Assembly: GCA_963851005.1 (NCBI GenBank)
Contig: CAWKNI010000007.1
Span: 1,630,904-1,694,903, forward strand
From: an uncultured delta proteobacterium
Lineage (GTDB): Bacteria > Desulfobacterota > Syntrophia > Syntrophales > Smithellaceae
DNA length: 64,000 bases
Direction: 5' to 3'
Shown here: positions 3,577 to 49,085 of the stretch, in pieces
Numbering within the stretch: the first letter of the stretch is position 1
Layout of the letters: each line of letters opens with the position of its first letter
Position numbers and translations under genes: made by a program
The notes under the pieces: generated by a model
The model's database searches: none
Told to the model about the DNA's origin: nothing
Seen by the model: the letters and a program-made list of their open reading frames with translations, nothing else

Positions 3577-3620
3577 TTTAAATAGTAATCCTCAATTTAG
3601 ACGACTGTCAAATACTGTGG
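3577..3620 (+). repeat. 44-bp conserved intergenic module (copy 1 of 2)
   Basis: tttaaatagtaatcctcaatttagacgactgtcaaatactgtgg matches 5054-5097 at about 40/44 positions. Both copies lie just downstream of a terminator. Confidence 0.8.
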
Positions 3621-3687
3621 TTCTGAAATCCTTAATTTTTCAATCATGACAATCATTCAAGCTCTCAATTGATAATCAATAAAATGA

Positions 3688-3812: not shown

Positions 3813-3900
3813 GATTCTTTTTTAGAAATGATGAAAGGAGGTAAGATAAAAAATTTTGATAGTTCAATTATTAAAAGTTGATATTTTATCAAAAGGAGAA

Positions 3901-4260
3901 ATGAATATGAAACGTTATATGAAAATTGTAGGGATTACTTTACTCATGGCTGTTTTTTTCTTAGTAAGTCTTCCAACTGTTCAGGCTGAAACTGAGTGGC
4001 AAAAAGATCATCCACGTCGCACCCAGGTTAATAAGCGACTGAAGAATCAAAATCGCCGAATTAATCAAGGAGTGAAAAATGGGAAACTGAATAAGCAAGA
4101 AGCCGCTCAATTACACAAGAAAGACCGTCAAATTAGGCAGGAAGAACGGGATATGGCCTCACAAAATGGTGGGCATATTACCAAACAGGAACAGAAGACA
4201 TTAAATCAGCAGGAAAATGCAGCCAGCAAACAAATATACAATGAAAAACATGGTCAATAA
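3901..4260 (+). CDS. Secreted Gln/Lys/Asn-rich periplasmic protein
   Basis: The ATG at 3901 is preceded by aaaaggag. The signal peptide ends in VQA-ETEW, and the helical charged repeats end in ...SKQIYNEKHGQ. Confidence 0.65.
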   Translation: MNMKRYMKIVGITLLMAVFFLVSLPTVQAETEWQKDHPRRTQVNKRLKNQNRRINQGVKNGKLNKQEAAQLHKKDRQIRQEERDMASQNGGHITKQEQKTLNQQENAASKQIYNEKHGQ

Positions 4261-4317: not shown

Positions 4318-4968
4318 ATGAAAAAGTTGCTTTTTGGAACAATCGTTTTAGCGTTGATAAGTATTTTCCCTATCACGACACTGGCAGGGGTAGATGTGAG
4401 TGTTGGAATTTCTATACCGTTGCCACCGCCTATCACATTTGAAGCACCGCCAGATGTAGTTGCATTACCAGATACCAATGGTGTTTATGTTGATCCTAGT
4501 GTAAACGTAGACATTTTTTTCTGGAATGGTTTTTGGTGGCGTCCATGGGAAGGTCGCTGGTATCGTTCACCGTATTATGATCGTGGCTGGGCTTATTTCG
4601 ATAGTGTTCCAAGATTTTATTATGACGTAGACCCATATTGGAGAGGATACTATCAGAATCACAATTGGCACGGTCACATTTGGAATTATCAACCAATTCC
4701 TCATTCACAACTTCAACAGAACTGGAAGAAGTGGCAAAATAATCGATCTTCGGGCAATCAAAGAACTTGGGGTGTGCAGGGTTATACACCTAAACCTCAA
4801 CAGCAGAGACAGATCCTAAGGCAACAAAGACAAACGATATACCAACAAAAACCTGAAGTTCAAAAACATCAACAATTTCAAAAACAGCAGAGACAACAGC
4901 AGAATAAGGGTAAATCAAATCAACAGTATCGAGGGCATGAAGGCAGAGGTGAAGAACATGGAAGGTAG
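4318..4968 (+). CDS. Secreted Trp/Tyr-rich protein with a Gln-rich tail
   Basis: A gggagg RBS precedes the signal peptide MKKLLFGTIVLALISIFPITTLAG. The W/Y-rich core is FFWNGFWWRPWEGRWYRSPYY and the tail is poly-Q/R. The gene is probably co-transcribed with 3901-4260. Confidence 0.65.
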   Translation: MKKLLFGTIVLALISIFPITTLAGVDVSVGISIPLPPPITFEAPPDVVALPDTNGVYVDPSVNVDIFFWNGFWWRPWEGRWYRSPYYDRGWAYFDSVPRFYYDVDPYWRGYYQNHNWHGHIWNYQPIPHSQLQQNWKKWQNNRSSGNQRTWGVQGYTPKPQQQRQILRQQRQTIYQQKPEVQKHQQFQKQQRQQQNKGKSNQQYRGHEGRGEEHGR

Positions 4969-5053: not shown

Positions 5054-5097
5054 TTTAAATGGTAATCCTCAATCTTGACGACTGCCAAATACTGTGG
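5054..5097 (+). repeat. 44-bp conserved intergenic module (copy 2), abutted by the intron relic
   Basis: tttaaatggtaatcctcaatcttgacgactgccaaatactgtgg. Similarity to copy 1 stops exactly at ...actgtgg, where the intron-like sequence begins. Confidence 0.8.
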
Positions 5098-5780
5098 ATT
5101 TGTAGGGTATGCCGTGTAAAACGTATGACTAGTCGGTTAAAGTCCGACGATGGGAGTTCGGTAGTTCGCCCATGTAGTTGGAGGGAGGTGTTAAGGGTAA
5201 CCTGAAGCATTAAGTTTCCTGACAAAGGCTCCTTAGGGGAGTCGAGCAAACCTGCGGGTCGCAGCGTAAGCGAACCCAGATGTAGCCTCGAAACACAAGA
5301 CGGAGTTGTCGACCCTCTCCTACACAGGGGAAGACCGTAGCATCTATCTTAACGAAAACTACCAGAACCGATAGAGGGACTTCCGGGGTAACAGGGGTGA
5401 CACGCAGGGGCAGCCATACGAGAATGAACACGGGAGACCCTTGTCGATGCTTTACAAGAGGGCAACTGGTGGATATAAGGAAACGAAATTTCACCGGGTT
5501 GGCAAGGGAGTCGGAGTTGCTCATAGTACCGCTTGTATTCCAAGGACAACATAACCTTGGGAGAGGAAAGGGGCAATACCTTCATCATGCTTCTAAAGGA
5601 GGGAAGGAAAGGAGATTACGGTAACGCTATTAACTCTGAATATTTCGAGAATTCCGGTGGAAGCTATACTGGAAGAAGATGATTGGAAAGCCGTATTCGG
5701 GAAAACCGAACGTCCGGTTTGATGAGGGGGAGCTGGAGATAGAACCATTTGGCAACTACGCCAACTCTCTACTCTACTGT
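5098..5780 (+). mobile_element. ORF-less (IEP-deleted) group II intron relic; both boundaries approximate
   Basis: About 680 bp of GC-rich sequence with no credible ORF. It ends in a canonical domain V hairpin (5688-5720) followed by a possible domain VI. Short frames resemble the leader and tail that flank intron RT ORFs (ESELLIVP...GRGKG; GKPNVRFDEGELE). No clean GUGYG 5' end was found. Confidence 0.6.
5688..5720 (+). ncRNA. Group II intron domain V
   Basis: aAGCcgtattcggGAAAaccgaACgtccggttt carries the AGC catalytic triad, a 2-nt AC bulge and a GAAA-type loop at about 34 nt. It has one U-C mismatch relative to the GAGCCGUAU...GUACGGUUC consensus. Confidence 0.7.
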
Positions 5781-5844
5781 TATCTTTGTCAAGCCAGAAT
5801 TCAATTTCTTTCTGTCCGCTAAGTCAAATATGGTTCAGAATAGA

Positions 5845-7005
5845 TTATTTTTTCTTCTTGAGCAGATCGCCCAAAGTACCCATTGTCTTGGGAGCCGGGG
5901 CGATATAATTACGAAAATCTTCTTCGTCGCCTTGGGTGGAAATTTCTTTATCACTCCCGATCATGTCCAATGAAATTCTTTTGTTTTCGCGGTCAATCTT
6001 TTCGATTTTGACCTCTATCTCCGTTCCGGTTGTAAGAACATCGCGGGCGTGTTTAATCTTCTTCCCGCGCGCCAGCTTGGAAATATGCAACAGACCATCC
6101 ACCCCGTCCTCCAATGTAATGAAAGCCCCGAAATCTGTCAGGCGGGACACTTTTCCCTTGTGCACGCTCCCCTCGGTGTATTTTCTCACGACATCATTCC
6201 ACGGATCAGGAAGCGTATCTTTGCAGGATAAGGAGACGCGATTATTTTCCCAATCCAGATTGATTATTACAGCCTCAACTTTATCGCCCGGAGAGTAGAG
6301 TGCTTTGGCGTCCTCGACTCTTCCCCAGGCCATTTCCGAAACGGGCAGCAGAGCTTGAATGCCGCCAATATCGACAAAAGCACCGAAGTTTTGCACGCTG
6401 GTCACCACACCACTTACGGTCATTCCCTTTTTCAGTGAATCTTTGAGAACATTTATTTTTTCCTGTTCAATTTTTTCGAGAAGAGGACGGCGCGACAGAA
6501 TTATTTTTCGCCCATTTTCCGCATATTCGATGATAATAAAATCCAGTTTTTTGCCGACGTAAGCAGTTACATCGTCAATTTTTTTCGTATCCATTTGCGA
6601 GTATGGACAAAAGCCGGTGGCGCTGGCGCTTATCTTGACCGAAAAACCACCCTTGATTTCTTTTTCTACGGTTGCTTCCAACGGAATTTTACTTTTGTAA
6701 GCATTGAGCAGGAAATCGTCAACGCTCCTGCTGGTCAGCAACTTGGTGGTGAAAAGTTTTTCACCATGGCGTGAAGAAAGAAAATACGCGGTGATGGTAT
6801 CGCCTTCTTTCACATTAAGATTGCCCTCTTCATTCATAAACTCATTTTTATCAAGATACCCTTCGCTTTTTGCGCCTAAATCTATGAATATCCATTCCGG
6901 TGAAATTTTTACCACAGTTGCGTCTATCTTTTCACCGGCTTCAAAATGTTTAGGTGCAAGATTTGTTTCTTCCAGCATTTCAGCAAAACTCTTTGTTTCT
7001 TCCAT
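5845..7005 (-). CDS. S1 RNA-binding-domain repeat protein (ribosomal protein S1-like, 4 S1 domains)
   Basis: 386 aa with repeated S1 OB-fold signatures (G..V.G.V..I..FGAFVD..G..GLLHIS). Confidence 0.8.
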   Translation of the reverse strand: MEETKSFAEMLEETNLAPKHFEAGEKIDATVVKISPEWIFIDLGAKSEGYLDKNEFMNEEGNLNVKEGDTITAYFLSSRHGEKLFTTKLLTSRSVDDFLLNAYKSKIPLEATVEKEIKGGFSVKISASATGFCPYSQMDTKKIDDVTAYVGKKLDFIIIEYAENGRKIILSRRPLLEKIEQEKINVLKDSLKKGMTVSGVVTSVQNFGAFVDIGGIQALLPVSEMAWGRVEDAKALYSPGDKVEAVIINLDWENNRVSLSCKDTLPDPWNDVVRKYTEGSVHKGKVSRLTDFGAFITLEDGVDGLLHISKLARGKKIKHARDVLTTGTEIEVKIEKIDRENKRISLDMIGSDKEISTQGDEEDFRNYIAPAPKTMGTLGDLLKKKK

Positions 7006-7249
7006 ATATATTCCTCGCTACTAAGTGTTGCATTTTACAAATTTTGGCCATCCGATAACATAAAATAAATATTTTGTCGCAGTGTATTTTTTAAATATTT
7101 TTGTTAAAATAAAGCACTCAGTATCCCCTGTGCTTCACGCAGAGGATAGTTTCCAACAGCTTTTGGCTATTGGATAATTCGATTAAAAAACTTCAATGCG
7201 CTTTGCTTTTGAAGTTTTAGTCTCATTACGACTAACCAATTTCAATGCA

Positions 7250-11352: not shown

Positions 11353-11815
11353 ATCTATTATTGTTAATAAATATTTTTAGTGGACAGGTCTAGTCTTTGC
11401 TTCGTTTATAAAGACAAAAATGGAACATATTGCGATAAGTCATGTGAAGAAAAAATGATATTTCAACGAACCGTTGCCAACAGATATCCATTTGAGCAGC
11501 CATTGAAAGCGTTTTGGCTAACCACGGGCAGAATGCACTCCGCTTTGCGGGATTGTTCAACTTACCAATTCCGTTACGCTACGCTTACGCAATTGGAGTT
11601 TCACATATAAAGCTTGGCGAAGCGTAAGATCAGTGATTACAACTGTCTGAGCCGAAGGCGAGTTTTGTAATCGCCTGAAGCAAGCCTTAGATTTATCCAA
11701 AACGCTTGCAGGCGGCGAAAAGGATTTTGGGGCAACGGGAAATTATCTATCAGTTTTTCCGCAAAGATAGGCAAATGAATCCAATTTTAAATTAAAACCT
11801 GTGCTATCACGAATA

Positions 11816-11857: not shown

Positions 11858-11986
11858 TTATACCAATTCTAAATCAAAGCGCTATTTTTGTTGGCTTCGT
11901 TGTCGGCTTCCTCAACGTATGTACAATACGCCTCATCGCCTCCACCTAGCCGCCTCAATATCATCTTTGATTTAGAAATGGTATTA
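11858..11986 (+). repeat. ~129-bp MITE-like repeat, copy B (orientation label arbitrary)
   Basis: TTA-TACCAATTCTAAATCAAAG...CTTTGATTTAGAAATGGTA-TTA has roughly 20-bp terminal inverted repeats. It is near-identical to 40631-40761 and is the reverse complement of 29420-29548 and 30836-30964. Confidence 0.9.
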
Positions 11987-11989: not shown

Positions 11990-13777
11990 CTACTTAAGCC
12001 TTTCTTTAAGCGCTTCGAATTGTTTTTTCATTCTCTCAGGAAGACGATCCCCAAACTGGGCAAAGTGCTTTTCAATATCGGGAACTTCAGCCTTCCATGC
12101 TTGAACATCAACATTAAGCAATTCATTAATATCCTGCACACTGATGTTAAGCCCTTTCATATCGAGACTGTCGGCATTGGGCAGCAAACCGATAGGCGTT
12201 TTGACTGCATTGGCCTTGCCGTCCACCCGTTCACACATCCATTTCAACACGCGGCTGTTTTCTCCGAAGCCAGGCCAGAGCCACCGGCCATCCGGTGTTT
12301 TTCTAAACCAGTTTACATAAAATATTTTCGGCGCTTTATCGCCGAGTTTATCGCCCATATCCAACCAGTGCTGGAAATAATCACCCATATTGTATCCACA
12401 AAACGGCTGCATAGCGAAAGGATCACGCCTCAAATTGCCCACCGCTCCGATATTGGCGGCAGTGGTTTCCGATGATGCCGTCGCGCCCAAAAAAACGCCG
12501 TGATCAAAATTATATGCTTCGTTGACCAAAGGCACAACGCCCCCGCGGCGTCCGCCAAAAACAAAAATATCAATGGGAACACCTTCCGGCTTTTCCCAAT
12601 CAGGGCAGATGACCGGACATTGAGAAGCAGGCGCGGTGAAACGAGCATTGGCATGAGCCGCAACTTCCTTTACCTCCGTCGGCCAGTCGCGGCCTTTCCA
12701 GTCAATCGCATGCTTGGGAGGCTTGCCGTCCATTCCTTCCCACCAGATATCGCCCTTATCGGTCAAAGCGCAGTTGGTAAAAATGGTGTTTTTCTTGATA
12801 GTATCCATCGCCATGGGATTGGAACTATAAGATGTGCCCGGCGCCACACCGAAAAATCCAGCTTCGGGATTTATTGCATGAAGCCTTCCATCTGGTCCGA
12901 TTTTCATCCAGGCTATATCATCGCCGACGCATTCGCATTTCCAGCCTTCAATTGTCGGCTGCAGCATGGCGAGATTGGTCTTGCCGCAAGCGGAAGGAAA
13001 GGCTGCGGCAATGTGATACTGTTTCCCTTCAGGGCTGGTCAGCCGCAGAATCAGCATGTGCTCCGCCATCCAGCCTTCGCGTTTGGCCATGGCCGAAGCT
13101 ATGCGCAGAGCCAGACATTTCTTGCCCAAAAGCGCGTTGCCGCCGTAACCGGAACCGTAAGACCAGATTAAATTTTCATCCGGAAAATGGCTGATATATT
13201 TTTTCTCAATGGGCGCGCAGGGCCAGGAAACATCTTTTTGGCCTTCTTGCAGTGGAGCGCCGATGGAATGCAGACAGGGAATAAACTCCCCTTTCTTCCC
13301 CAGCTTCCTGAGAACTTTTTTCCCCACACGGGTCATAATGTGCATATTGCAGACGACGTATGGGCTGTCGGTTATCTCAATACCGATTTTGGCAATGGGA
13401 GATTTAATCGGTCCCATGGAAAAAGGAATTACGTACATCGTGCGTCCCTTCATGCATCCCTTATAAAGGTCTTTCATCGTTGCCTTTAATTCATCAGGCG
13501 CAATCCAGTTATTCGTTGGCCCTGCTTCAACCTGTAAGGGTGTGCTGATATAGGTTCTATTTTCCACTCTTGCCACATCCGACGGGTCGGAACGAAACAA
13601 AAAACTGTTCCTTCTCTTCTTTAATTTGATAGCCATGCCGCTTTTTTCCATCTGCGACATGAGTTCGTTGTATTCCTTCTTGGAGTCGTCACACCAATAA
13701 ACCCTATCTGGCGTGCACATCTCCTGAATCTCTTTAACCCATTTTTTCAGTTTCTCGTTTCTTACAACTATTTCCAT
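11990..13777 (-). CDS. pckG: Phosphoenolpyruvate carboxykinase (GTP)
   Basis: 595 aa with FPSACGKTN (kinase-1a), WMAEHMLIL and GTP-PEPCK-specific blocks throughout. Confidence 0.92.
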
Positions 13778-13815
13778 AAAACAAAGTTCCTTTATTAATT
13801 GCGAACGCTTCTATA

Positions 13816-14071
13816 TCCTCCGCTGGCGGAGGTGTCACGCAGTGACGGAGGTGGATAGAGAGCTTTGCACAACTTCCTTAATCGTCATACCGGCGAAGGC
13901 CGGTATCCAGGAAACCATTGATAATACTGGATTCCCGCCTTCGCGGGAATGACAATGTTGTTGGTTTTATGCCGTTGTGCAAAGGTCTCGAATAAAAACT
14001 TCCGGCCTGCAACTTATTGTAACATTACACCTGCAATAGCACTTCCACCCCCTTGCCCCCGCCAGCGGGGG
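13816..14071. repeat. Battery of GC-rich REP-like hairpins between ppdK and pckG
   Basis: Hairpins are cctccgctggcggagg (13817-13832), ataccggcgaaggccggtat (13887-13906), attcccgccttcgcgggaat (13931-13950) and cccccgccagcggggg (14056-14071). The first unit recurs inverted at 57433-57471. Confidence 0.8.
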
Positions 14072-17107: not shown

Positions 17108-17291
17108 CAATCCCGCAAGATTTGTAATCCTCCGGCTCCAGCCGGTGGAAGAATACGGTGTAACTCGCGGGAGGTAGCGTTATCCTCTGCTTCGCGGGAT
17201 AATTCGACTAACGCTTCAAACTTTACTTCATTTAATTTAGCTGGTCTCATTAATACATGGAGCCTTCGGCTCCTGCCAAAGGAGGCTCCAC
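17108..17291. repeat. Composite of REP-like units (families 'aatcccgc...ggctncagccgg...cgcgggagg' and 'ggagcc...ggctccac')
   Basis: 17108-17182 matches 61482-61553 and, inverted, 43264-43313. 17259-17291 matches 33344-33375, 43104-43137, 59097-59128 and 61557-61592. Confidence 0.8.
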
Positions 17292-17317
17292 TGCGGTTAA
17301 CAAAACGAAATAAAAGG

Positions 17318-23105: not shown

Positions 23106-23241
23106 TCAAAAGTGTCTGCTTTTTAGGGCTATTGTTTGCCTGCCACTCACCAATATTTCGTATCCTTCCGCCAACAGAACAAGCAAAAGTAATCGCCCTT
23201 TGCCGCCATTTCCAATATCAGTATCATCAATAATAATATTA
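23106..23241 (-). pseudogene. Detached 3' end of the methyltransferase gene split by the IS1595-family element
   Basis: Reading the minus strand from the target duplication gives IIDDTDIGNGGKGRLLLLVLLAEGYEILVSGRQTIALKSRHF-stop. This is in frame with ...KLNDNNI at 27519+ once the insertion and one TSD copy are removed. Confidence 0.7.
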
Positions 23242-23314
23242 GGCGATTATCGGCTTGACAAAAGTAAAATTAAGTATTATATTATAGTCAAATACTGAAA
23301 CAAGGAGTTTCGCC

Positions 23315-24022
23315 ATGAAAGAAAAACAACCTTCCCTTTTTGATATTGTTGATAAATTCAACACCGAAGAAAAATGTATCGCCCACTTTGAAAGAGTGCG
23401 CTGGCCTAAAGAACTTACCTGTATTCGCTGTAATGGCAATCATATTGTAAGAATCAAAGCGCAAGGGAAAACAGGCAAGGAACGCTCTCTTTATTGGTGC
23501 GCAGATTGCCAATATCAATTTTCTGTTACTACAGGAACTATTTTTCATAATTCTCATTTGCCTTTAACTAAATGGTTCTTGGCGATCTATTTAATTTGTT
23601 CATCGAAAAAAGGCGTTTCCGCCAAACAATTACAACGTCAACTTTCTACAAGCTATGAAACAGCTTGGTATATGGCGCACCGCATCCGCATTGCTATGCA
23701 GGAAGATGAGGATTTTTGTCAAAAGTTCGCCGGTGTTTGCGAAGTTGACGAGACTTATATAGGTGGCAAAGGAAAAGGTCCGCGCGGGCGCGGAGCCGCC
23801 AATAAAATTCCCGTAGTTGCGATAAAAGAACGGACATCAGGTAAAATCCTCATGCAAGCGGTTAATAATGTGAAAACAAGTACATTGAAAGAGTTCATAC
23901 GTGCTAATGCTATCCCGGGTTCTAACATCAATACTGACGAGTTTACTTCTTATTTGTGGCTCGATAGTTCTGAATTTGTTCATAGCACTGTCAACCATTC
24001 TGAAACCTATGTTAAATACGAT
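23315..24022 (+). pseudogene. IS1595-family transposase, N-terminal 236 codons (interrupted)
   Basis: A zinc ribbon (CIRCNG...CADCQYQF) and DETYIGGKGKG identify the transposase. The frame is broken at 24022/24023 by the IS21 end. Confidence 0.85.
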
Positions 24023-24136
24023 TGTGAATCGGCATGCAATAATGACCCACCAATAGGCAAAATCGGCATTCAAAGTTGACCCAGGCCTGCAAGCCTTCTA
24101 TTCTGCCATAAATATGGGAGAAGGAGGCAGAAAGGG

Positions 24137-25651
24137 ATGCTCACGGTGGAAACTATTCGGAAGATACGGTTATCAGTACATAGAGATGGCAAATCGATTC
24201 GTCAAACGTCAAAAGATCTTCATCTATCACGGAACACAGTCAGAAGAGCAATCAGGAGTGGAGAGACCCTTTTCCAGTACGAGCGCCAGAAACAGCCAAT
24301 TCCTAAGCTGGGACCGTTTATAGAAATGCTTGACGGTAAACTGGATGAGGACGAGAAACTGCCGAAGAAACTAAGGAGAACGGCACAGATTCTTTTTGAG
24401 GATATTCAACTGAACGGTTATGAGGGCGGCTATGACAGTGTAAGGCGGTATATTCAGCGATGGCGCAATGAGCGGAAGATCTCAACGGGAGGTGTATATA
24501 TACCGCTGAGATTTGAACCAGGGGAAGCATTTCAGTTTGACTGGAGCCATGAATGGGTAGAGATAGGCGGGGCGAGTTTAAAGGTAAAGGTTGCCCATCT
24601 GCGGTTATGCTACAGTCGCTATTTTCTTTGCATAGCCTACCCCAGAGAAACCCAGGAGATGGTTTTTGATGCCCATATAAAGGCTTTTGAGTTCTTCGGA
24701 GGCGTGTGCAGGAGAGGCATCTATGACAACCTCAAGACGGTTGTTAACAAGATCATCGGAGGAAAAGAAAGGAACTTCAACAGCCGTTTCGTCCAATTCA
24801 GCTCCCATTATCTTTTTGATCCTGTAAGCTGCACACCGGGTGCGGGCTGGGAAAAGGGTCAGGTTGAAAACCAGGTAGGCTTAGCCAGAAGGAGATTTTT
24901 CATTCCCAAGATCAAGGCCAGGGACTTCAAGGAGCTCAACGATACATTAAAAGGACAATGTATCAACTGGGCAAAGAGCCATAAGCATCCGACATTTTCC
25001 GACAAGACGGTTTGGGAGGTGTACGAAGAAGAGAAGCCTTGCATGATCAGTCTGCCTCCCCCTTTCGATGGGTATGGGGAACGTCCTGCCAGGGTTACAT
25101 CCAGTTCGCTTGTGACCTATGATCGTAACAGATACAGTGTTGATTGCAGTCAGACAGGCAGAATCGTACAAATAAGAGTATATGCCGATCGAATAATGAT
25201 CGTCAGTGATGGCCGCGTCGTAGGAGAACACGAGAGGCACTTTGGAGAAAATAAGACGGTTTTTAATCCATGGCATTATGTTTCTGCCCTTGAACGGAAA
25301 CCAGGCGCTTTACGCAACGGAGCTCCTTTCAAAGACTGGGATCTTCCCACGGGCATGGGAAACGTCCTCAACGGATTGCAAAACCGTTTTACCGACTGGG
25401 ATCGTCAATTTGTGGCAATTCTTAATGCCGTACCTCTTTACGGTCTTGATGCCGTTGACAAGGCATGCGAAGACGCCTTGAAGATGAGAGCTGTGAGTAA
25501 GGAGGTTGTTATCAATCTTCTCAACAGGAATCAGGAAAAGGACTTTGCCGCGGATGTAGGCATTCCTCCCCACCTGATTCTGAAACAGGAACCAATAGCA
25601 GATTGCCGACGATATGAATCTTTAATGAGGGGGGACTGCAATGTTGCGTAA
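24137..25651 (+). CDS. istA: IS21-family transposase IstA
   Basis: 504 aa with an N-terminal HTH, a DDE integrase core (FQFDWS...) and an overlap with istB typical of IS21. Confidence 0.9.
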
Positions 25652-26372
25652 TGAGATCATGGAGCTTATGGGAAAGCTGAAATTACAGGGCATGCAGTCC
25701 GTTTATGATGAAGCGTTGTCAAATGGACGAAAGAGCCGGTCAACTCCTGAGAAGATGATCTTAGAAATGCTTAAAGCCGAGGCCACTGAAAGGCATATAA
25801 GAAGCATCCGCTATCGAATGGGGCAGGCCAGGTTTCCTGCGCCCAAAGATATCGACAGTTTTGATTTCAAAGGGAGTTCGGTTGATAAAAACCAGATTCA
25901 ATCATTGTATCAGGGGGATTTTATTGAACAGCATATCAATCTGATTTTCGTAGGCGGCACCGGTACCGGCAAGACACATTTGGCAACTGCAATAGCGGCG
26001 CAGGCCGTCAGGGATGGGAAAAAGTGCAAATTTTATAACCTGGTGGATTTGGCAAATGAGTTGGAACAGGAGAAAATGGCCGGATTTGCAGGAAAAATAT
26101 CTGCACGACTGATTCGGTTTGATATGGTGCTGCTTGATGAACTGGGCTATCTGCCCTTCTCAAAAAACGGAAGCCAACTGCTCTTCCATCTCATATCCAA
26201 GCTCTACGAACAAACATCTATCGTCATGACAACAAACTTAACCTTTGGTGAATGGCCTCAAGTGTTTGGTGATGCCAAAATGACTACCGCAATGCTGGAT
26301 CGCCTTACTCATCATTGTGAAATCATAGAAACCGGGAATGAAAGCTGGAGGATGAAACACAGGTCTTCATAA
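25641..26372 (+). CDS. istB: IS21 helper ATPase IstB
   Basis: 243 aa with Walker A ([11 protein letters not shown]) and Walker B (VLLDELGY). Confidence 0.9.
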
Positions 26373-26451
26373 ACATATATTTTTTACTCAGGGGTGGGTC
26401 AGTTTTGGACGCCGATGCTGGGTCTATTTTCAATGCCTATTGACATACGAT

Positions 26452-26637
26452 AAAGACGGCATTGTTCACACTAACGGTGTTGAAAATGTTTGGTCGTTAT
26501 TTAAACGCGCCATCTATGGAACTTTTCATAAAGTATCTGCTAAATATCTTCCTCTCTATCTCAATGAGTTCGCCTACCGTTTTAATAACCGTGACCACCT
26601 TGATATGATGGATAGGGTTTTAGAAACGAGCTGCTAA
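26452..26637 (+). pseudogene. IS1595-family transposase, C-terminal 61 codons
   Basis: KDGIVHTNGVENVWSLFKRAIYGTFHKVSAKYLPLYLNEFAYRFNNR joins in frame to ...SETYVKYD at 24022 after removal of IS21 plus one TSD copy. The restored protein is about 297 aa. Confidence 0.85.
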
Positions 26638-27485
26638 AATTCCGAAGAATTCAATTCGGTAAAATCTTGAAGTTCTGGCATTATAGAATCACATACTCCC
26701 CTAAGCATCTCTTCATTCCAAAAAGAGTAAAGGTGGTTTTTTGTTAAAATTCTATGAATGGGTTCAAATCCGTTCTTTAATTCACCTGTATTTTGTATTC
26801 TTCGTACTCCCCAAGATATAATATCCGCAGCTTGTAATGCAGATATTTTTTCATCATCATCAAAAAGAAGACCTGCTACATGAAAAAAATTTTTGCCTTT
26901 TTGCAACCTTTTTATTGCAGTATAGGAATGAAGAATATATTGTTTAAACTCATTACCATCATCTAAAATATACGCTATGCCATCTTCTAACTTTTCTTTG
27001 AATGAATAACGATGGATTGACTGAACAAAAAGCTGAAAACAAAAACCGTAAAATCCCCCCATATGCTTTGCAATTACTTGTGGAACACAAGTATCAAATT
27101 GTTTTTTGTTAAGACTTACATCAAAACTTTGTATTTTATATCGATTAATAATATTAGCTGCTTCTGTAAGAAGAGCTCTTTTGCCTTCTTCGCTAAAATG
27201 CCCAAGCCTTCCATGTAGGCCAAATTCTTTCATGTGAATTGCTTTGATGTCTTGATTGTCTCGCAATAACTTTTGCCATTTTCTATCAAAAGCAAAAATC
27301 CCGCCCTTATCTAAAACTATACCCCCCATAACGGTAGTTATATTATTAGGGTCGTTATTTTTATCAGTGCCGCTTTCATCTATATAGCAATGTAAAGCTA
27401 AAGCCTTTTTATTTGGATCTTCTGAATGGTGCATAGCAAACCAAATGTGTTCCAAATATTTATTATTTATGTTAGTATTAATCAT
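26634..27485 (-). CDS. DUF3800-like protein (passenger gene inside the IS1595-family element)
   Basis: 283 aa. The N-terminal CYIDESGT motif is characteristic of DUF3800. The gene lies between the transposase stop and the right IR. Confidence 0.55.
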   Translation of the reverse strand: MINTNINNKYLEHIWFAMHHSEDPNKKALALHCYIDESGTDKNNDPNNITTVMGGIVLDKGGIFAFDRKWQKLLRDNQDIKAIHMKEFGLHGRLGHFSEEGKRALLTEAANIINRYKIQSFDVSLNKKQFDTCVPQVIAKHMGGFYGFCFQLFVQSIHRYSFKEKLEDGIAYILDDGNEFKQYILHSYTAIKRLQKGKNFFHVAGLLFDDDEKISALQAADIISWGVRRIQNTGELKNGFEPIHRILTKNHLYSFWNEEMLRGVCDSIMPELQDFTELNSSEF

Positions 27486-27500
27486 GATCGGCTCCTTTTG

Positions 27501-28028
27501 TCAAGCCGATAATCGCCTAATATTATTATCGTTTAATTTATCTTTTGCCGCCAAATAAGCCAAAAGATGATTTTCTGCATATTGACTGCTGGGCAATACA
27601 TCCCAAGCGTCAAGGAAAAGTAAATCGATTTTGCGTTTAAATTTTTTTAGAAACTTAAGTCCATCGCCCCATAAAACCTTGCCGTTTTTAAATTTCCGGA
27701 TGCTATTTCTTGCAATTTTCACAGCCTTGAAATCTATATCTACCGAAAAAACCTGTGCGCCCGTCATACACCAGAAATACGTTGAATGACCATCGTTGCA
27801 ACATTTATGCATCTCGGATATGGGATGGGTCATTGGCTGCCGCATACAGCCGATTTCAACAATTGTTTTTCCGGACATCTCAGAAAAAAGCTCTATAGCC
27901 GCCTCCAGATATTTCTTGGGTTTTCCTCTTTCCTGTTGTTCATCGAGTGTCAAATTGGCATGCTTGAATACTTTCTCTTCTTGATTAAGCATTCTATTTT
28001 TTTCTTTTAATTTTTGTATTTTTTCCAT
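27501..28028 (-). pseudogene. SAM-dependent (O-methyltransferase family 3-like) methyltransferase, 3'-truncated by IS insertion
   Basis: TIVEIGC and DLLFLDAWD are the motifs. The last codons (RRLSA-stop) are read from the IS inverted repeat, and the true C-terminus lies at 23106-23241. Confidence 0.65.
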
Positions 28029-28252
28029 GAATGTTATTTTAATTAATTTCTTCTTTTTTCTTCTTTCAATAAATCACATACAGGGTAATTCTGTCAAAAC
28101 TATTTCTTCAAATTTTCTACTGAACCAAAAGACAGAGATGAAACAGCAAAAACTTAATGTTAATTTCATTCTGTTCACATTTTATCATTTATGGTAAGTA
28201 ATGGACAAAATACTAAAATTATTTCTATAAACATTAAACGGTGGAACAAATC

Positions 28253-29272
28253 ATGTTTGATGTGATTATGCCTGTAAGTACTAAACACAACAATATTGCA
28301 TTATTATCTATCACTTCGCTCATGCAATATGTCATGCCTCATAATATTTATGTTATTACATCTAAAGATAACTTTCATTTTTTTGAAAGATTACAAAAGA
28401 ATTATCCTATCATCACATTAGATGAAAATTATTTAATCTCTACCGTAAATTTGCAGTCTATAGAGGAATATATTGAAAATAAAGGACAGGATCGGCAAAG
28501 AGCCGGCTGGTATCTTCAGCAATTTTTAAAAATGGCTGCTTGTTTCTTACCCGATATCAGTGATTATTATTTAATATGGGATGCAGACACTATTATGTTA
28601 AAATACATAAGATTTTTGAATGACAAAAATCAAATTTTGATCAAACCTTCTTCAGAATACCATTATCCTTACTTCGATACTTATTCCAAAATTACCGGAA
28701 AAACCCGAAGTGTTAATTTCTCTTTCATCAGCGAGCATTTTTTTATCAATAAAAATTATATGAAGGAATTAATTACTGCTATTGAAGAACATACATCTAC
28801 GGAGCAGAATTGGGCTTGGAAAATAATGAATGCTGTCGATAAAAAATATTTATCCGGCTCCGGATTCAGCGAATATGAAACATACGGAAACTTTGTTGAA
28901 ACAGTACATCCCGGTACTTTTGCATTAAGACCATTAAAAACGACCAGGTACGCCTCAAAAAAGTTCGGACCAGTACCTAGTAAATATGATCTGTACAGAT
29001 TATCATTATCATGTTCATACGCTTCTTTTGAAAACTGGAACAATGATGGAAAACTTGTTAGAATATTGATAGAAAAATTATTATCCGCGTTAATTTATTA
29101 TGCCAATCCAGGACGTTATTTAAACAAAGAATCTTGTGTAGTTGTAAATTCTCGTACTTTGCCTGCTCATATTTATACTGACACTGCCCAAAGATATAAA
29201 GTTTGGGAAGCAGATAAACTAGTTTATAAAGAAATTGGCGAAACAATTGGCCAGCTGGATGGTAACACCTGA
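28253..29272 (+). CDS. Hypothetical protein, possibly a nucleotide-diphospho-sugar transferase-like enzyme
   Basis: About 339 aa from the ATG at 28253. It has AGWYLQQFLKMA and a DxD-like LIWDADT, is AT-rich, and sits in the glycan locus. Confidence 0.35.
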   Translation: MFDVIMPVSTKHNNIALLSITSLMQYVMPHNIYVITSKDNFHFFERLQKNYPIITLDENYLISTVNLQSIEEYIENKGQDRQRAGWYLQQFLKMAACFLPDISDYYLIWDADTIMLKYIRFLNDKNQILIKPSSEYHYPYFDTYSKITGKTRSVNFSFISEHFFINKNYMKELITAIEEHTSTEQNWAWKIMNAVDKKYLSGSGFSEYETYGNFVETVHPGTFALRPLKTTRYASKKFGPVPSKYDLYRLSLSCSYASFENWNNDGKLVRILIEKLLSALIYYANPGRYLNKESCVVVNSRTLPAHIYTDTAQRYKVWEADKLVYKEIGETIGQLDGNT

Positions 29273-29419: not shown

Positions 29420-29548
29420 TTATACCATTTCTAAATCAAAGATGATATTGAGGCGGCTAGGCGGAGGCGACGAGGCGTATTATAGATACGTTGAGGAAGC
29501 CGACAACAACGCCAATAAAAATAGCGCTTTGATTTAGAATTGGTATTA
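29420..29548 (-). repeat. ~129-bp MITE-like repeat, copy C
   Basis: TTA-TACCATTTCTAAATCAAAG...CTTTGATTTAGAATTGGTA-TTA is the reverse complement of copies B and E. Confidence 0.9.
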
Positions 29549-29581
29549 CATCTTGTAACAGAGATTAAGAGTTCACCGGTT

Positions 29582-30619
29582 TTAACTAGTCTGCCCCCAA
29601 AATAGTACTTTAGTGATTTTAAAACGCCTGAGCAACAGGAACGATAGAGCTAGAGAGAAAAATAATGACACCACGGCAGCGGAAAAATACCACCATATAG
29701 CATTACTGAATTTAAATAAAAAATAACTATGACAAGCGTAGATATCCAAAGTCCACATTCCCAACCAACTGAGAAAATAATATAATCGAGACTGTTTAAT
29801 TCGTTCCAAGATAAAAGAACATAAAGCTATTCCTCCAAAGGATATGGCGTATTTATAGATGGAAACAACCAGTCGAGCAATGTCTTCGTTATGTAGAGAG
29901 CTTAAAAGCACGGGATAAAAAGTTGGAAATGCATTTCTTTCCCAACCCAGAACCAAAACAGGAAAGGTTACGATGGCCACTGCATAAATGATCTTGCGTT
30001 TGGCTTTCAGTACATCGAGATATTTGCATACAAAAAAACCCGCCGCGTAATAGGGGAAATATTGTTTAACATCGGCTAAAGCAAGAAAATTAGCAGAGGC
30101 GGTCATGGAAAGCAGAATCGCTGCTAATACAAAATAGTTTTCTCTGTGCTGCCGTTTTTTATAACGTGCGAGTTTCAGCGCGCCAAACAGAAGCGCGCTG
30201 TTTAAAAATAGTATCCACAAAAACCATAATCCGCGCGCAGGCGATTTCATCAGATCAAATAAATAGGCGGGCAGACTGATGTCCGTTTGAAAACGGACAA
30301 AAATATAGTTGATGATGTACCAAACAATGAAAGGCACCAACAGCCGGACGGCATTTTTTTTCAGATAATTCAAAAGAGAATATCCAAACTGTGTGGACAA
30401 GATAAAACCGCTCAAAAACATGAGCATCGGCATATGAAATGAATAGATAATCCGAAACAGGAGATTGTTGTCATAATTGGGATCATTGATCTGGATTGAA
30501 TGTCCCCAAACGACCAGGATAATGGCCAATCCCTTCAATGCGTCAATATGTTGATTGCGCCTCTGCGCCAATATCCCGTCTATTTTCAGCCAACTTTTAA
30601 TCTTGTCCAAAAAATTCAT
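29582..30619 (-). CDS. Acyltransferase family 3 (O-acyltransferase)
   Basis: 345 aa with HIDALKGLAIILVVWGHS and a multi-TM profile. It is bracketed by repeat copies C and D in direct orientation. Confidence 0.75.
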   Translation of the reverse strand: MNFLDKIKSWLKIDGILAQRRNQHIDALKGLAIILVVWGHSIQINDPNYDNNLLFRIIYSFHMPMLMFLSGFILSTQFGYSLLNYLKKNAVRLLVPFIVWYIINYIFVRFQTDISLPAYLFDLMKSPARGLWFLWILFLNSALLFGALKLARYKKRQHRENYFVLAAILLSMTASANFLALADVKQYFPYYAAGFFVCKYLDVLKAKRKIIYAVAIVTFPVLVLGWERNAFPTFYPVLLSSLHNEDIARLVVSIYKYAISFGGIALCSFILERIKQSRLYYFLSWLGMWTLDIYACHSYFLFKFSNAIWWYFSAAVVSLFFSLALSFLLLRRFKITKVLFWGQTS

Positions 30620-30835
30620 TATATTTTTCTTTTGTTAAACAATTACACACGCCATGCCCACAGCATGGCGACAGGTCTCTGCCTGGTGATGAATCCCTAT
30701 TTTTTAGAAAAATGTTCCATGCCTTCAATATTCTGATTTTCTTCTTCTTCGCCGCAATGAACCTCTATTGTAATTTGATCCATCTGCTGCAAATACTCTG
30801 ACGGGTAATTATATAAAATATCGTATTTTGCTACG

Positions 30836-30964
30836 TTATACCATTTCTAAATCAAAGATGATATTGAGGCGGCTAGGCGGAGGCGACGAGGCGTATTGTA
30901 CATACGTTGAGGAAGCCGACAACGAAGCCAACAAAAATAGCGCTTTGATTTAGATATGGTATTA
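30836..30964 (-). repeat. ~129-bp MITE-like repeat, copy D
   Basis: Near-identical to copy C, in the same orientation, and flanked by TTA on both sides. Confidence 0.9.
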
Positions 30965-31075: not shown

Positions 31076-32234
31076 ATGCAAAAAATTGCGGTAGTTATAC
31101 CCAAATACGGCTTGCTTGGCGGAGCTGAACAATTCTCTTCCGAATTAACCGGAAGACTCGTTTCTTCAACAGGATATAAATTTCATGTGTACGCTAATCG
31201 CCGGCAAAAATCAGCGGCCCCTATAACTTTTCACCAAATGCCGATTATCTCTTTTCCTAAATTTCTGACCACACCCAGCTTCGCTTATTTTGTTCAACGC
31301 AAGATCAATCATGGCAATTTTTCTCTCGTTCATAGCCATGAAAGAATTTTTGCCGCTGATATCTTTACTATGCACGGCATTCCTCACCGATACTGGATTC
31401 ATAATGTTCGCCACAAGCAGATGAGCCTCTATGATTCAGCAACAGCTTGGGTCGAAAGAAAACTTGTTTATGAAGGTAACTGTAAAAAATTTATCGCCGT
31501 CTCCAGTCTGACTAAAGATATTTTTTTACAGGAATACAATATCAACCCCGATAAAGTTGCTGTTGTTAACCCCGGTGTGGATTTAAATGATTATTGCGAA
31601 CTGGACAAAGATTCCGTCCGTAACAGTGTTCGCAGTGAATTGGGAATTAACATCTCTGATACGGTAATTTTGTTTGCATCAATGAATTTTGAGATTAAAG
31701 GTCTCTGATAACGTTTTATTTTCTTTGGCCAAATTAAAAGCTCAAAATCGAAAATTCAAGCTCATCGTTGCCGGTAAAGGGAATATAAAGAAATATGCAA
31801 AAATGGCCCAAGAAGCTCAAATCATCTCCGATGTCATTTTTACCGGTCCTGTAAGCAAAGAAAAATTAATCAGAATATATTTGGCCGGTGATTTTTATAT
31901 TATGCTCTCCAAATTTGATACATTCGGCATGGTTGTTCTTGAGGCAATGGCAGCCGGTTTACCTGTACTTATAAGTAGCAATGTCGGCGCTAAAGATATT
32001 GTACAGGAAAATAAAAACGGATTTATTGTCAATGATACATCCGACATCGATTATATCGCGGCAAAAATAGCTCTGCTGCTCGATGAAAATATCCGTCGGA
32101 GGATGGCTGCCGTTGCGTGGCAAACAGCAGCGCAAAACACATGGGATAATGTAACAAAAAAATATGCGGCCATCTACGAGAATATAATGGCAGAAAAAAG
32201 CTTAATATCAGGAATAAAAAAAGGAAAATTATAA
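31076..32234 (+). pseudogene. Glycosyltransferase family 4 (GT-B), split by a 1-nt frameshift near 31704-31707
   Basis: ORF 31076-31708 ends ...MNFEIKGL-stop. ORF 31689-32234 continues ...DNVLFSLAKLK...FGMVVLEAMAAGLPV. Removing one nt from ggtctcTgataac gives a continuous FEIKGLDNVLF. Confidence 0.75.
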
Positions 32235-38694: not shown

Positions 38695-38808
38695 CTCAAA
38701 TCACTGGCATTATATAAAAGCACTTTGTTTTGTAAATTTGGGATTCATTACAATAGTCCCACTTAGCTTTGCACGTGGGATAATTCGACCAGCAAGCTTC
38801 AGTCGAAG

Positions 38809-38827
38809 ATGACCTTTAGGTTATGCA
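38809..38827. repeat. REP-like unit 'gacctttaggttat' within a mosaic repeat block (about 38740-38860)
   Basis: It shares units with 7130-7300 and 50850-51130; for example, cacttcgtttctgaagcttgggtctcattaaag is the inverse of 51007-51038. Confidence 0.7.
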
Positions 38828-38931
38828 CTTCGTTTCTGAAGCTTGGGTCTCATTAAAGTATCACAATAAAAGATTCCCCCTCGAATCCTATTGGGAAAAT
38901 CGAGGGGGAATATTGCTAAACGACAGGCAAT

Positions 38932-39724: not shown

Positions 39725-40567
39725 ATGATGGTGCAACAATCAGAATCTATAGCCAATAATGGCATTTATCGATCGTGTCCTCTATGCGGCAAAAAAAATG
39801 CGGATATAAAACCTTCGATATATTCAAAGAACCCATGGATAATAAAAAAGTGCGCCCAGTGCTGTTTTGTTTATCTGGAAAATCCTCCTGCCTATGAAGA
39901 ACTCGAAGAAACCTATGCCTGGGAAAAGACATCGCATCAGGTCGCTGAGGAAAAAAAGAAAAAGGAATCCGCACTGCGTCGCGGCGTGCGCGTCATTGAA
40001 CATTATAAGGACAGGCTTATTCGCCGGGATAAGCTCCTTGATCTGATCAAACTGTACTTCCCCACAGGGCCGGTGATAGATGTGGGATGCGGAGGAGGTG
40101 AAGTCATGGCGCGTCTGGATAAAAAATACACTCCCTTCGGAATTGAAGTATCCAGACAACTGGCCGAAGTCGCTCAAAAAATCGCGGTAACCAGGGGAGG
40201 CAGTGTTTTCTGCGGTAACGCTCTTCTGGGATTGAGTAGTTTCGAAAAAGATTTCTTTGTCGCGGCAATTATGTCCGCCTATTTAGAACATGAATCCGCG
40301 CCCCGTGAAGTTCTTCAGAAAATTCTGCAAATCTTGCAACCCGGCGCTCATCTCATTATTAAGGTGCCTAATTACGGTTGTGTTAATCGCATCGTCATGG
40401 GACAAAAATGGTGCGGGTTCCGGTACCCGGACCACGTTAATTACTGGACGCCGAAAACTCTTATCAAAATTATAAAGGATACGGGATTCCAGATCGTCCG
40501 ATTCAATATCTGGGATCGTTTCCCTACCAGTGATAACATGTGGCTTGTAGTTCGCAAACCACTTTGA
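39725..40567 (+). CDS. Class I SAM-dependent methyltransferase with an N-terminal zinc ribbon
   Basis: CPLCG...CAQCC form the ribbon, and VIDVGCGGGEV is motif I. Confidence 0.8.
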   Translation: MMVQQSESIANNGIYRSCPLCGKKNADIKPSIYSKNPWIIKKCAQCCFVYLENPPAYEELEETYAWEKTSHQVAEEKKKKESALRRGVRVIEHYKDRLIRRDKLLDLIKLYFPTGPVIDVGCGGGEVMARLDKKYTPFGIEVSRQLAEVAQKIAVTRGGSVFCGNALLGLSSFEKDFFVAAIMSAYLEHESAPREVLQKILQILQPGAHLIIKVPNYGCVNRIVMGQKWCGFRYPDHVNYWTPKTLIKIIKDTGFQIVRFNIWDRFPTSDNMWLVVRKPL

Positions 40568-40630: not shown

Positions 40631-40761
40631 TTATACCAATTTTAAATCAAAGCGCTATTTTTGTTGGCTTCGTTGTCGGCTTCCTCAACGTATGTATACA
40701 ATACGCCTCGTCGCCTCCGCCTAGCCGCCTCAATATCATCTTTAATTTAGAAATGGTATTA
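40631..40761 (+). repeat. ~129-bp MITE-like repeat, copy E
   Basis: Same orientation and near-identity to copy B, with TTA on both flanks. Confidence 0.9.
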
Positions 40762-40861
40762 CTTGCCGGCATTAACAATCATAAATAATTATATTTTAAT
40801 AATTGTTTGAATGTGTTACTCAAATATTTATATTTTAGAGGGGACAAAAAGTAATTTTAAC

Positions 40862-42679
40862 ATGAACATATTAGGAATATCTGCATTCTATCACGACAGC
40901 GCTGCTTGCCTGGTGCGTGACGGCGACATTATCGCGGCGGCGCAGGAGGAGCGCTTTACCAGAAAAAAACATGATTTTTCTTTTCCGGCGAAGGCGATAG
41001 ATTATTGTCTGGAAACAGGAAAAATAAGCAGCGAATCATTAGATTATATTGCTTTTTATGACAAGCCTTTTATTAAATTCGAGCGTATTTTGGAAACTTA
41101 TCTGGCATTTGCTCCCTACGGCATTCAATCATTTATCATGGCAATTCCTCTCTGGATAAAACAAAAGCTGTGGATGAAGGAATTCATTAAGAAGCAGTTG
41201 GGCTATGAAGGAAAAATAATTTTCCCGGAGCATCATGAATCTCATGCTGCTTCAGCTTTTTTTGCTTCGCCTTTTCCCGAAGCGGCATTTCTTACAATAG
41301 ACGGCGTCGGCGAATGGACGACCACCAGTTACGGTATCGGGAAAAATAATCAAATTCAAATACTTTCCGAAATTCATTTTCCACACTCGCTGGGACTTTT
41401 CTATTCGGCATTTACTTATTATACCGGGTTTAAAGTTAATTCCGGGGAATATAAGGTTATGGGACTTGCACCATACGGAACACCTAAATATAAGGATTTG
41501 ATACTCTCTGAATTGATGGATTTAAAAGAGGACGGCTCCTTTAAGTTAAACATGAAATACTTTGACTATTGCGCTGGCCTAACCATGACCAACAGGAAAT
41601 TTGACAAGCTTTTCGGCGGGCCGCCCCGTAAACCTGAATCAGATGTTACCCAAAGAGATATGGATCTGGCTCGTTCCGTTCAGGATGTGACAGAAGAAGT
41701 GATGCTGCGCATGGCCCGTCATATTCATAGCGAAACGAAGCAGAAGAACCTTTGTCTAGCGGGAGGAGTGGCTCTTAATTGTGTGGGAAACGGAAAAATT
41801 CTACGGGAAGGACCCTTTGATAATATATGGATACAACCGGCAGCCGGTGACGCCGGGGGTGCTCTTGGGGCCGCTCTTTTTGTCTGGTATCAGTATCTGG
41901 ATAATCAGCGAACGGCAAATAACCGAAAAGATTTTATGAAGGCGTCACTTCTCGGACCTGAATATAGCAATGAGCAGATCTTTCAATATCTGAATGCCAA
42001 CAACATCGCTTACACCGAATTATCCCCGGAGGAAATACCTGCCGGAATTGCCGATCTGATAGCCCAGCAAAAGACAATCGGATGGTTTCAGGGAAGGATG
42101 GAATTTGGACCGCGCGCCTTAGGTGCCCGTTCAATTATTGGTGACGCCCGGTCTCCTAAAATGCAGGAAATCATGAACCTCAAAATAAAATTTCGGGAAA
42201 GTTTCCGTCCTTTCGCTCCCAGCGTTCTTCAGGAAAAAGCCGCCGATTTCTTCGATATTGACAGGGAAAGTCCCTATATGCTATTAGTCGCGCCGGTTAA
42301 AGAAAACATCCGCAGAGCAATGACCAGACAGGAACAGGAATACTTCGGACTGGATAAATTGCATGTTGTTCGTTCCAGCATTCCGGCGGTAACACACGTG
42401 GACTACTCAGCTAGAATACAAACCGTGACCAGTGAAGACAATCCCATATACTACGAAATGATTGACAAATTTGCAGAGAAACACAAATGTCCGGTAATCA
42501 TTAATACATCCTTCAATGTTCGCGGAGAACCTATTGTCTGCACACCCCAAGACGCGTATCTGTGTTTTATGAGAACAAATATGGATTATCTTATTATGGG
42601 CAATTATCTATTAAACAAAGAAAATCAAAAACCACTGAGTAATGATATCAACTGGCTGAAGAAGTACGAAAACGACTAG
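40862..42679 (+). CDS. Carbamoyltransferase (NodU/CmcH family)
   Basis: The start at MNILGISAFYHDSAA is typical of the family. Other matches are HHESHAASAF and NTSFNVRGEPIVCTP. Confidence 0.9.
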   Translation: MNILGISAFYHDSAACLVRDGDIIAAAQEERFTRKKHDFSFPAKAIDYCLETGKISSESLDYIAFYDKPFIKFERILETYLAFAPYGIQSFIMAIPLWIKQKLWMKEFIKKQLGYEGKIIFPEHHESHAASAFFASPFPEAAFLTIDGVGEWTTTSYGIGKNNQIQILSEIHFPHSLGLFYSAFTYYTGFKVNSGEYKVMGLAPYGTPKYKDLILSELMDLKEDGSFKLNMKYFDYCAGLTMTNRKFDKLFGGPPRKPESDVTQRDMDLARSVQDVTEEVMLRMARHIHSETKQKNLCLAGGVALNCVGNGKILREGPFDNIWIQPAAGDAGGALGAALFVWYQYLDNQRTANNRKDFMKASLLGPEYSNEQIFQYLNANNIAYTELSPEEIPAGIADLIAQQKTIGWFQGRMEFGPRALGARSIIGDARSPKMQEIMNLKIKFRESFRPFAPSVLQEKAADFFDIDRESPYMLLVAPVKENIRRAMTRQEQEYFGLDKLHVVRSSIPAVTHVDYSARIQTVTSEDNPIYYEMIDKFAEKHKCPVIINTSFNVRGEPIVCTPQDAYLCFMRTNMDYLIMGNYLLNKENQKPLSNDINWLKKYEND

Positions 42680-48877: not shown

Positions 48878-49085
48878 TGGCTCCTTCTTTCTTCCGGTAG
48901 AGTGAAAATACAATATCCGTGTACCCTCACGACCGACTAATTATTAATGGTCCCATATTAGAAACGACATTTACTTCATAAAATCCCTCCTAACCTCCCT
49001 TTTGTAAAGGGAGGTACTCCCCTCTTTTCTAAAGAGGGGGTGGGGGAGATTTCTTTACCATGTCTATTTTATCCTGAGACTGTTA

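Follow-up and report, generated by a model that had tools for sequence, protein, structure and literature searches.

A short intergenic repeat of Smithellaceae genomes, very probably a non-autonomous DNA transposon that duplicates T-W-A triplets

The window analyzed here, a 64,000-nt stretch of DNA from an uncultured delta proteobacterium of the Smithellaceae, carries several copies of a short repeat, which is real small non-coding mobile DNA of an ordinary kind, a MITE. Taken together, the results make it very probable that the repeat is a non-autonomous DNA transposon of about 123 nt with 19-nt terminal inverted repeats (TIRs), and that it is specific to Smithella and related Smithellaceae. 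The element inserts at T-W-A triplets, duplicates the triplet, and can do so in either orientation. The MITE interpretation put forward in the original prediction was thus borne out by the multiple copies, their occurrence in both orientations, the TIRs, the duplication and the existence of empty sites. The element has every structural feature of a bacterial MITE (PMC2229807), apart from a partner insertion sequence (IS), of which none was found in the sequences searched. No prior description of it was found in the literature searched.

Copies, insertion sites and distribution of the element

Four full copies and one truncated copy were located in the window, in both orientations and all in intergenic regions, with an element length of 123–125 nt. 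Their coordinates are as follows:

11861–11983, + strand: MITE copy 1, 123 nt, C-rich strand on the + strand
11858–11860, no strand: left TTA target-site duplication of copy 1, from the triplet and the empty-site comparison
11984–11986, no strand: right TTA target-site duplication of copy 1, from the triplet and the empty-site comparison
29423–29545, - strand: MITE copy 2, 123 nt, C-rich strand on the - strand, TTA at 29420–29422 and 29546–29548
30839–30961, - strand: MITE copy 3, 123 nt, C-rich strand on the - strand, TTA at 30836–30838 and 30962–30964
40634–40758, + strand: MITE copy 4, 125 nt, C-rich strand on the + strand, TTA at 40631–40633 and 40759–40761
1–24, - strand: partial copy 5, final 24 nt (3' end) only, the rest cut off by the window edge; the flank at 25–27 is TCA

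The four full copies lie where the original prediction had placed them. Since its intervals took in the 3-bp flanks on each side, the elements proper are shorter than the ~129 bp first given. Copy 4 measures 125 nt because of a 2-nt insertion in its central loop. As had been proposed, the copies are near-identical and occur in both orientations, with pairwise identities of 93.6–96.7% and copies 1 and 4 opposite to copies 2 and 3. The TIRs, previously put at roughly 20 bp, measure 19 nt (TACCAWTTCTAAATCAAAG), with 18 of the 19 positions complementary and position 6 often mismatched. This 19-nt terminal pattern occurs nine times in the window, compared with 0.10 occurrences expected, and none of 100 shuffled sequences reached nine. 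Neither BLAST nor a search with an nhmmer profile of 46 family members detected additional copies in the window. The MITE has no coding capacity. On the + strand, TTA is present on either side of all four full copies; the claim that every copy is flanked in this way therefore held for these, while it failed for the truncated copy with its TCA.

The window has a G+C content of 41.5%, and its genes serve polysaccharide synthesis and central metabolism. Among named relatives, the PEPCK protein is closest to those of Smithella sp. MAGs (89% identity), Smithella being a member of the Smithellaceae, order Syntrophales, phylum Thermodesulfobacteriota. A census of the element, suggested along with the original prediction, was performed by scanning species-representative genomes with the terminal pattern, and it returned at least 102 loci. 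Among those listed, 97 loci from about 29 assemblies are labeled Smithella, Syntrophaceae, Smithellaceae or uncultured delta proteobacterium. Five listed loci from other taxa match the terminal 19-mer only or little more, and the matches in Flavobacterium, Lactiplantibacillus, Bacteroidales and Cloacimonadota were on this account regarded as chance and rejected as family members.

A BLAST search with copy 1 yielded 73 alignments with a length of 100 nt or more (in the loci among the matches listed, the L001 contig and the window), and the pairing of termini gave 72 complete copies, those of the window included, among the matches listed. As the loci were fetched by an exact terminal-repeat match, the conservation of the terminal repeats in this set is partly built in. 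In the window and the matches listed, the modal length is 123 nt (25/72), and 34 of the 72 copies measure 122–127 nt. Shorter forms have arisen by internal deletion, and forms of 150–291 nt by nested insertion of other small hairpin repeats. The long variants were also considered as carriers of a transposase remnant, a possibility that was rejected because their extra DNA consists of nested small repeats with no such remnant.

Several distinct small repeat families are carried by these genomes. A second small-hairpin family, with ends like TAATGAGAC...GTCTCATTA, stands free in intergenic regions at window positions 38735–38860, 50855–51080 and 7144–7236. The same module was found nested inside 150–291 nt MITE variants (L012, L022, L028, L037, L039, L058 and L098), so that the repeats stack into mosaics. 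Further short G+C-rich hairpin repeats are shared by distant sites of the window (13809–13857 and 57430–57478; 43273–43313 and 61482–61522; 17243–17292 and 61544–61593). In addition, the flanks of L023 and L039 match the window at 11538–11572, 49016–49052 and 50888–50942, and repeats of this type are present in many Smithellaceae loci. Rfam models also recognized group II intron domains (D1–D4 and the catalytic core) at window positions 5130–5269 and 5686–5777. A 49-nt direct repeat (88% identity; 3577–3625 and 5054–5102, 1.5 kb apart) adjoins these pieces. No reverse-transcriptase open reading frame (ORF) was recognized near them, the ORFs at 3856–4260 and 4318–4968 being without a Pfam match.

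With regard to the flanking triplet, + strand flanks across the window and the matches listed are TTA/TTA in 34 copies and TAA/TAA in 11, that is, identical in 45 of 72, and the inverted TTA/TAA arrangement was not seen in any of the 72. In the same set, 122 of 144 single flanks fit TNA and 111 of 144 fit TWA, and TGA or TCA occur as occasional target triplets. Relative to the element, the triplet reads TAA in 23 cases and TTA in 21, which indicates that insertion orientation is random; a wider target consensus was not seen. Along the + strand of the records, TTA outnumbers TAA by 34 to 11 (4/4 in the window), though contig orientation should be arbitrary and the element-relative ratio is 21:23 among the matches listed. 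A post-hoc binomial estimate, which is rough, gives p of about 0.001 for this excess, and it may be a fluke.

Two empty sites document the duplication directly. At the locus of the closest PEPCK orthologue (L193, 92% amino acid identity), the sequence is '...AAGTAGGTA TAA CAAAAAAGCCGGAGC...', with a single TAA and no element; it reads AAGTAGGTA TAA CAAAAAAGCCGGAGCAATGATTTTGCTCCGGCTTTTTTT, in which the stop codon is followed by three bases, a single TAA and then the terminator. At the same point of the window, the element stands between two TAA triplets, and once the element and one TAA are removed, both sequences are colinear (84% over 88 nt). The second site is filled in Smithella sp. SCADC (L038), '...CAATAC TTA (element) TTA TACTAAATTGCC...', and empty in Syntrophaceae fen_1165 (L054), '...CAATAC TTA TACTAATTTGCT...', which is colinear with the former minus the element and one TTA. 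The direct repetition of the triplet in 45 of 72 copies among the matches listed, with no inverted case, and the single TWA at each of the two empty sites confirmed that the TTA flanks are a 3-bp target-site duplication. By the same observation, the opposite possibility, raised with the original prediction, that TTA is part of the element itself, was not upheld, since a single TWA remains where the element is absent.

The PEPCK loci of more distant Smithella (89–90% identity) also lack the element, their 3' regions being too diverged for alignment. A metagenome scan with PEPCK gave full-length relatives of at most 79% identity and one partial relative at 92% (L144, 407 residues), and the element was present in none of these loci. 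Copy 1 is hence missing at the PEPCK locus of 92% identity as well as at those of 89–90%, so that relatives differ in its presence, and its absence from the closest relative marks it as a fairly recent insertion. Other copies are shared by different species, with identical site, orientation and triplet, and are therefore older than the splits between these species. Insertion has thus taken place both before and after species splits.

These data bear on two other modes of movement. Transposases of the IS630/Tc1 type have been put forward as movers of many bacterial MITEs with TA at their ends, such as Correia, ERIC and RUP. The element would then be a TA-duplicating MITE moved by an IS630/Tc1-mariner-type transposase, with the extra base of the triplet belonging to the element, a reading that we consider very improbable. 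It is favored by the TA with which the element starts and ends, like most bacterial MITEs (PMC2229807), and by the fact that any 3-bp direct repeat contains a possible 2-bp parse. Against it, the middle base of the triplet is directly repeated in 45 of 72 copies and never inverted, among the matches listed, and the 2-bp TA parse was rejected because the element would need a variable extra A at one end or a variable extra T at the other.

REP/REPIN and IS200/IS605-type elements insert without target duplication and have no long terminal inverted repeats. That the repeat is a palindrome of this type, moved by a single-strand Y1/RAYT-type transposase, would be in line with its abundance, its intergenic location and the fact that the whole element is an imperfect palindrome able to fold as single-stranded DNA. 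Its verified 3-bp duplication and 19-nt terminal repeats, however, make this the least probable of the readings considered.

Search for a mobilizing enzyme

A duplication of 3 bp is the hallmark of PIF/Harbinger and IS5 elements, and TA that of Tc1/mariner (PMC4122938); a 3-bp duplication at A+T-rich TWA (TTA/TAA) is typical of the PIF/Harbinger superfamily (PMC4122938, PMC2213677). Since duplication length reflects the stagger of the transposase cut, 3 bp at an A+T-rich site points to a DDE enzyme of the IS5/Harbinger type. We infer with moderate confidence, and from the duplication alone as no parent IS was found, that the mobilizing enzyme is most likely of the IS5/PIF-Harbinger rather than of the IS630/Tc1 kind. 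The suggestion of IS5-like enzymes made with the original prediction agrees with the TWA duplication of 3 bp. Such a DDE transposase, acting in trans, would bind the terminal repeats and cut the TWA target with a 3-nt stagger, and gap repair would then give rise to the duplication.

A full-length IS with the same termini, which the original prediction had proposed to look for, did not emerge: the window, about 0.8 Mb of Smithellaceae loci, viral contigs and plasmids were all searched, and none of them yielded an autonomous IS with these ends. In the Smithellaceae loci, the relaxed terminal pattern at spacings of 500–3500 bp gave no credible candidate, and a search for any inverted repeat accompanied by a TNA duplication gave no matches. 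Inverted repeats enclosing a long ORF yielded 79 crude candidates, of which the sole true IS is an IS1182-like element in L089 with different ends. The scan of viral contigs returned no matches, and that of the plasmid collection only chance-level ones (E of at least 1). The L089 element is IS1182/IS5-like, spans 1.6 kb (5316–6913) and contains a 512-codon open frame beginning ...MGYQPDAQPKLFYHSFNLDERIPANSVLRKI; its inverted repeats of 19 bp (TGTTGCCCAAATA...) bear no relation to the ends of the MITE.

One candidate for an IS630 parent was provided by L103, in which the terminal 19-mer lies 125 nt upstream of a frameshifted IS630-family transposase gene (HTH_32 + DDE_3). It was rejected, and with it the remaining point in favor of IS630/Tc1-type mobilization, as the match is a chance one, located inside a GT2 glycosyltransferase coding sequence (...FDLELVVADDCSTNG..., FDLELVVADD) and lacking a right end. 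Further, tblastn with the L103 transposase detected no IS630-like gene in any of the Smithellaceae loci examined.

The window does contain transposase genes, located together with a DUF3800 gene:

23315–24079: IS1595-family transposase gene
24137–25651: IS21 istA
25641–26372: IS21 istB
26634–27485, - strand: DUF3800 gene

Both the IS1595 and the IS21 genes were dismissed as movers of the MITE because the inverted repeats that go with them are unrelated to its termini, and the earlier statement that the window holds no cognate transposase therefore stands. The IS1595 and IS21 families make target duplications longer than 3 bp. Around the IS1595, IS21 and DUF3800 genes, perfect 35-bp inverted repeats (ATAATAATATTAGGCGATTATCGGCTTGACAAAAG) delimit a 4.3-kb segment (23230–27529), which resembles an IS inserted within a second one; its ends show no obvious target duplication.

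Genomic context, fold and divergence of the copies

Copy 1 is situated in the 3' region of the PEPCK gene, between its stop codon (11990–11992) and a strong intrinsic terminator (11856–11820, - strand), and would therefore be part of the PEPCK transcript. Copy 2 lies between the convergent genes 28241–29272 (+) and 29582–30619 (-), copy 3 between the divergent genes 29582–30619 (-) and 31076–31708 (+), and copy 4 between the co-directional genes 39725–40567 (+) and 40811–42679 (+), at distances of 64 and 50 nt. The truncated copy 5 is separated by 2 nt from the stop codon (30–32) of an acyl-CoA dehydrogenase gene, and translation showed that its TCA flank is not that stop. Copies 2 and 3, which share the same orientation, bracket a single acyltransferase gene (29582–30619) in the geometry of a composite transposon (window 29420–30964); since separate TTA duplications accompany the two copies, they appear to have inserted independently.

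In the window and the matches listed, 70 of the 72 copies are intergenic, and in 11 of the 72 a long open frame ends with the flanking TAA or TGA as its stop codon. Stop codons at this position are the expected residue of a TWA-seeking element if selection removes insertions inside genes. With respect to transcription, the 72 copies among the matches listed showed no orientation bias: the ratio of C-rich to G-rich strand as the sense strand is 29:26 for copies up to 200 nt downstream of a gene, 21:19 for those located upstream and 18:12 for those between genes running in the same direction.

Each copy folds as one long imperfect hairpin whose stability exceeds that of shuffled sequence (z = -3 to -7). 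Folding is about 10 kcal/mol more favorable for the G-rich than for the C-rich strand because of three conserved G-U pairs. In an alignment of 46 copies, 93% of the hairpin cells are paired. Nine stem pairs show double changes, compared with 4.7 in shuffles (0/500 reaching that number), the clearest being U-A in 31 and C-G in 15 of the 46 copies; these compensatory changes separate two subfamilies and hence may represent only a few events. Copies inside transcription units, namely copy 1 and copy 4 between its co-directional genes, would be transcribed as a long imperfect hairpin, and by analogy with reports on ERIC and Correia such a hairpin could alter mRNA stability or processing.

A stable long hairpin, the better fold of the G-rich strand with its three conserved G-U pairs and some covariation are also what a family of structured non-coding RNA genes or cis-regulatory RNA motifs might display. 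We nevertheless judge this reading even less probable than IS630/Tc1-type mobilization. Empty sites and target duplications speak for insertion, either strand serves as sense with equal frequency, and other repeats are found inserted inside copies. Rfam returned no family at the gathering score and nothing convincing up to an E of 10. A built-in promoter was considered on the basis of a sigma-70-like motif, TTGTCG-N16-TAnnnT, on the C-rich strand of copy 1, and it was discarded given that the motif occurs in only 15 of the 46 copies. Likewise, a strand-specific RNA role was set aside owing to the absence of orientation bias relative to genes. The alternative that had been named alongside the original prediction, a conserved RNA gene family with covarying structure, was thus not upheld, given the lack of orientation bias and of an Rfam match and the limited covariation. 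Random orientation relative to both triplet and genes, together with the negative Rfam search, identifies the element as mobile DNA rather than an RNA gene family: it behaves as inserted DNA and not as a gene.

Several copies found at the same site in different species have diverged less than their surroundings:

L018 and L060: element 122/123 nt identical (99.2%), flanks about 76% over 200 nt and about 85% close by
L017 and L092: element 93.5%, flanks 74–77%
L071 and L092: element 94%, flanks 75–77%

Part of the compared flanks is coding sequence. In two of the six orthologous pairs, both with nested insertions, the element is no better conserved than its flanks. Among the matches listed, the closest relative of a copy resides in another species for 37 of 46 copies, with identities of up to 98–99%, while the PEPCK proteins of these species are about 85–92% identical. 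The excess conservation of same-site copies, along with the compensatory pairs, hints at constraint or homogenization and would not be expected of purely neutral junk. Possible causes are host-level selection acting on the hairpin, homogenization of the hundreds of copies by gene conversion together with selection for transposability, and recent interspecies spread.

The first of these would correspond to an exapted MITE, whose insertions are now under purifying selection as ERIC-like hairpin modules for mRNA stability or processing or for protein binding. Exaptation of this kind is compatible with a MITE origin, and we regard it as rather unlikely, though clearly less so than the other alternatives discussed. 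In its favor are the identities of same-site copies (93.5–99.2%, versus 74–85% for the partly coding flanks), the close relatives in other species, the nine double-change stem pairs and a fold far more stable than that of shuffled sequence, with z-scores of -5 to -7. Nonetheless, the lack of orientation bias argues against a strand-specific RNA role, the compensatory changes may be few events, two of the six orthologous pairs show no excess conservation over their flanks, and gene conversion or selection for transposability could also slow divergence. Moreover, conservation driven by structure was not upheld, as paired and unpaired positions in the interior of the element are equally variable across the 46 copies (0.096 versus 0.118, p = 0.33).

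Members of Smithella and related groups are syntrophs that break down propionate and alkanes in methanogenic environments; they are either hard to grow or uncultured, and nearly all genomes of the group are metagenome bins. Two Logan short-read contigs from the same strain end inside the MITE (L184, 2546–2595; L185, 1955–2002), which indicates that the repeat breaks short-read assemblies. Further, an 'archaeon' MAG includes a 2.8-kb contig (L083) that bears a copy with 97% identity, its placement there probably reflecting a binning error. With one copy per 13 kb or so, the repeat thus breaks assemblies and can cause misbinning, and it also constitutes a ready lineage marker for Smithellaceae. 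The element adds a well-documented bacterial case of a MITE duplicating TWA. The slow divergence of its old copies is the least ordinary aspect of an otherwise modest finding; if due to selection, it would offer a further system, beside ERIC, in which to ask why some MITEs evolve slowly.

Comparison with known systems

Many IS5-family ends start with GG or GA, unlike the termini of the Smithella element, which start with TACC. The element shares with Tourist-type (PIF/Harbinger) and IS5-derived bacterial MITEs the 3-bp TWA duplication (PMC4122938, PMC2213677), and the link is made by this feature alone, the searches described above having yielded no partner of the IS5 or Harbinger type whose ends match. 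It has no sequence in common with these MITEs.

The closest parallel in size and architecture is offered by ERIC/IRU, the enterobacterial repetitive intergenic consensus of 127 bp (PMC2229807). Both elements are imperfect palindromes from end to end, with terminal inverted repeats, TA termini and a target duplication (PMC2229807). ERIC is likewise intergenic, found in either orientation, co-transcribed with its neighbors (as predicted for the Smithella element) and unusually conserved between species (PMC2229807). In contrast, the two share no sequence similarity, and the Smithella element belongs to a different phylum, the Thermodesulfobacteriota; its TIRs extend over 19 nt, as against about 7 contiguous pairs in ERIC, and its duplication is TWA. 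An orientation-dependent effect on mRNA decay has been demonstrated experimentally for ERIC.

Correia/NEMIS elements of Neisseria (about 107 and 155 bp) are also small MITEs with TIRs of 20-odd nt and a high copy number (PMC2229807). They resemble the Smithella element in having no identified parent transposase, in being transcribed as hairpins (expected for the latter from its context) and in their length variants affecting internal blocks (PMC2229807). They differ from it in their sequence, with which it has nothing in common, and in their TA duplication, IHF site and promoter elements; the Smithella element duplicates TWA, carries only a partial IHF-like core (AATCAA) at its ends and has a promoter-like motif in a minority of copies.

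Finally, RUP, BOX and SPRITE of pneumococcus and bcr1 of the Bacillus cereus group are unrelated to the Smithella element in sequence, host and duplication, and RUP has a proposed IS630-type partner (TA). Like it, they are small intergenic hairpin repeats that occur by the hundred, some of them with a target duplication and a candidate IS partner.
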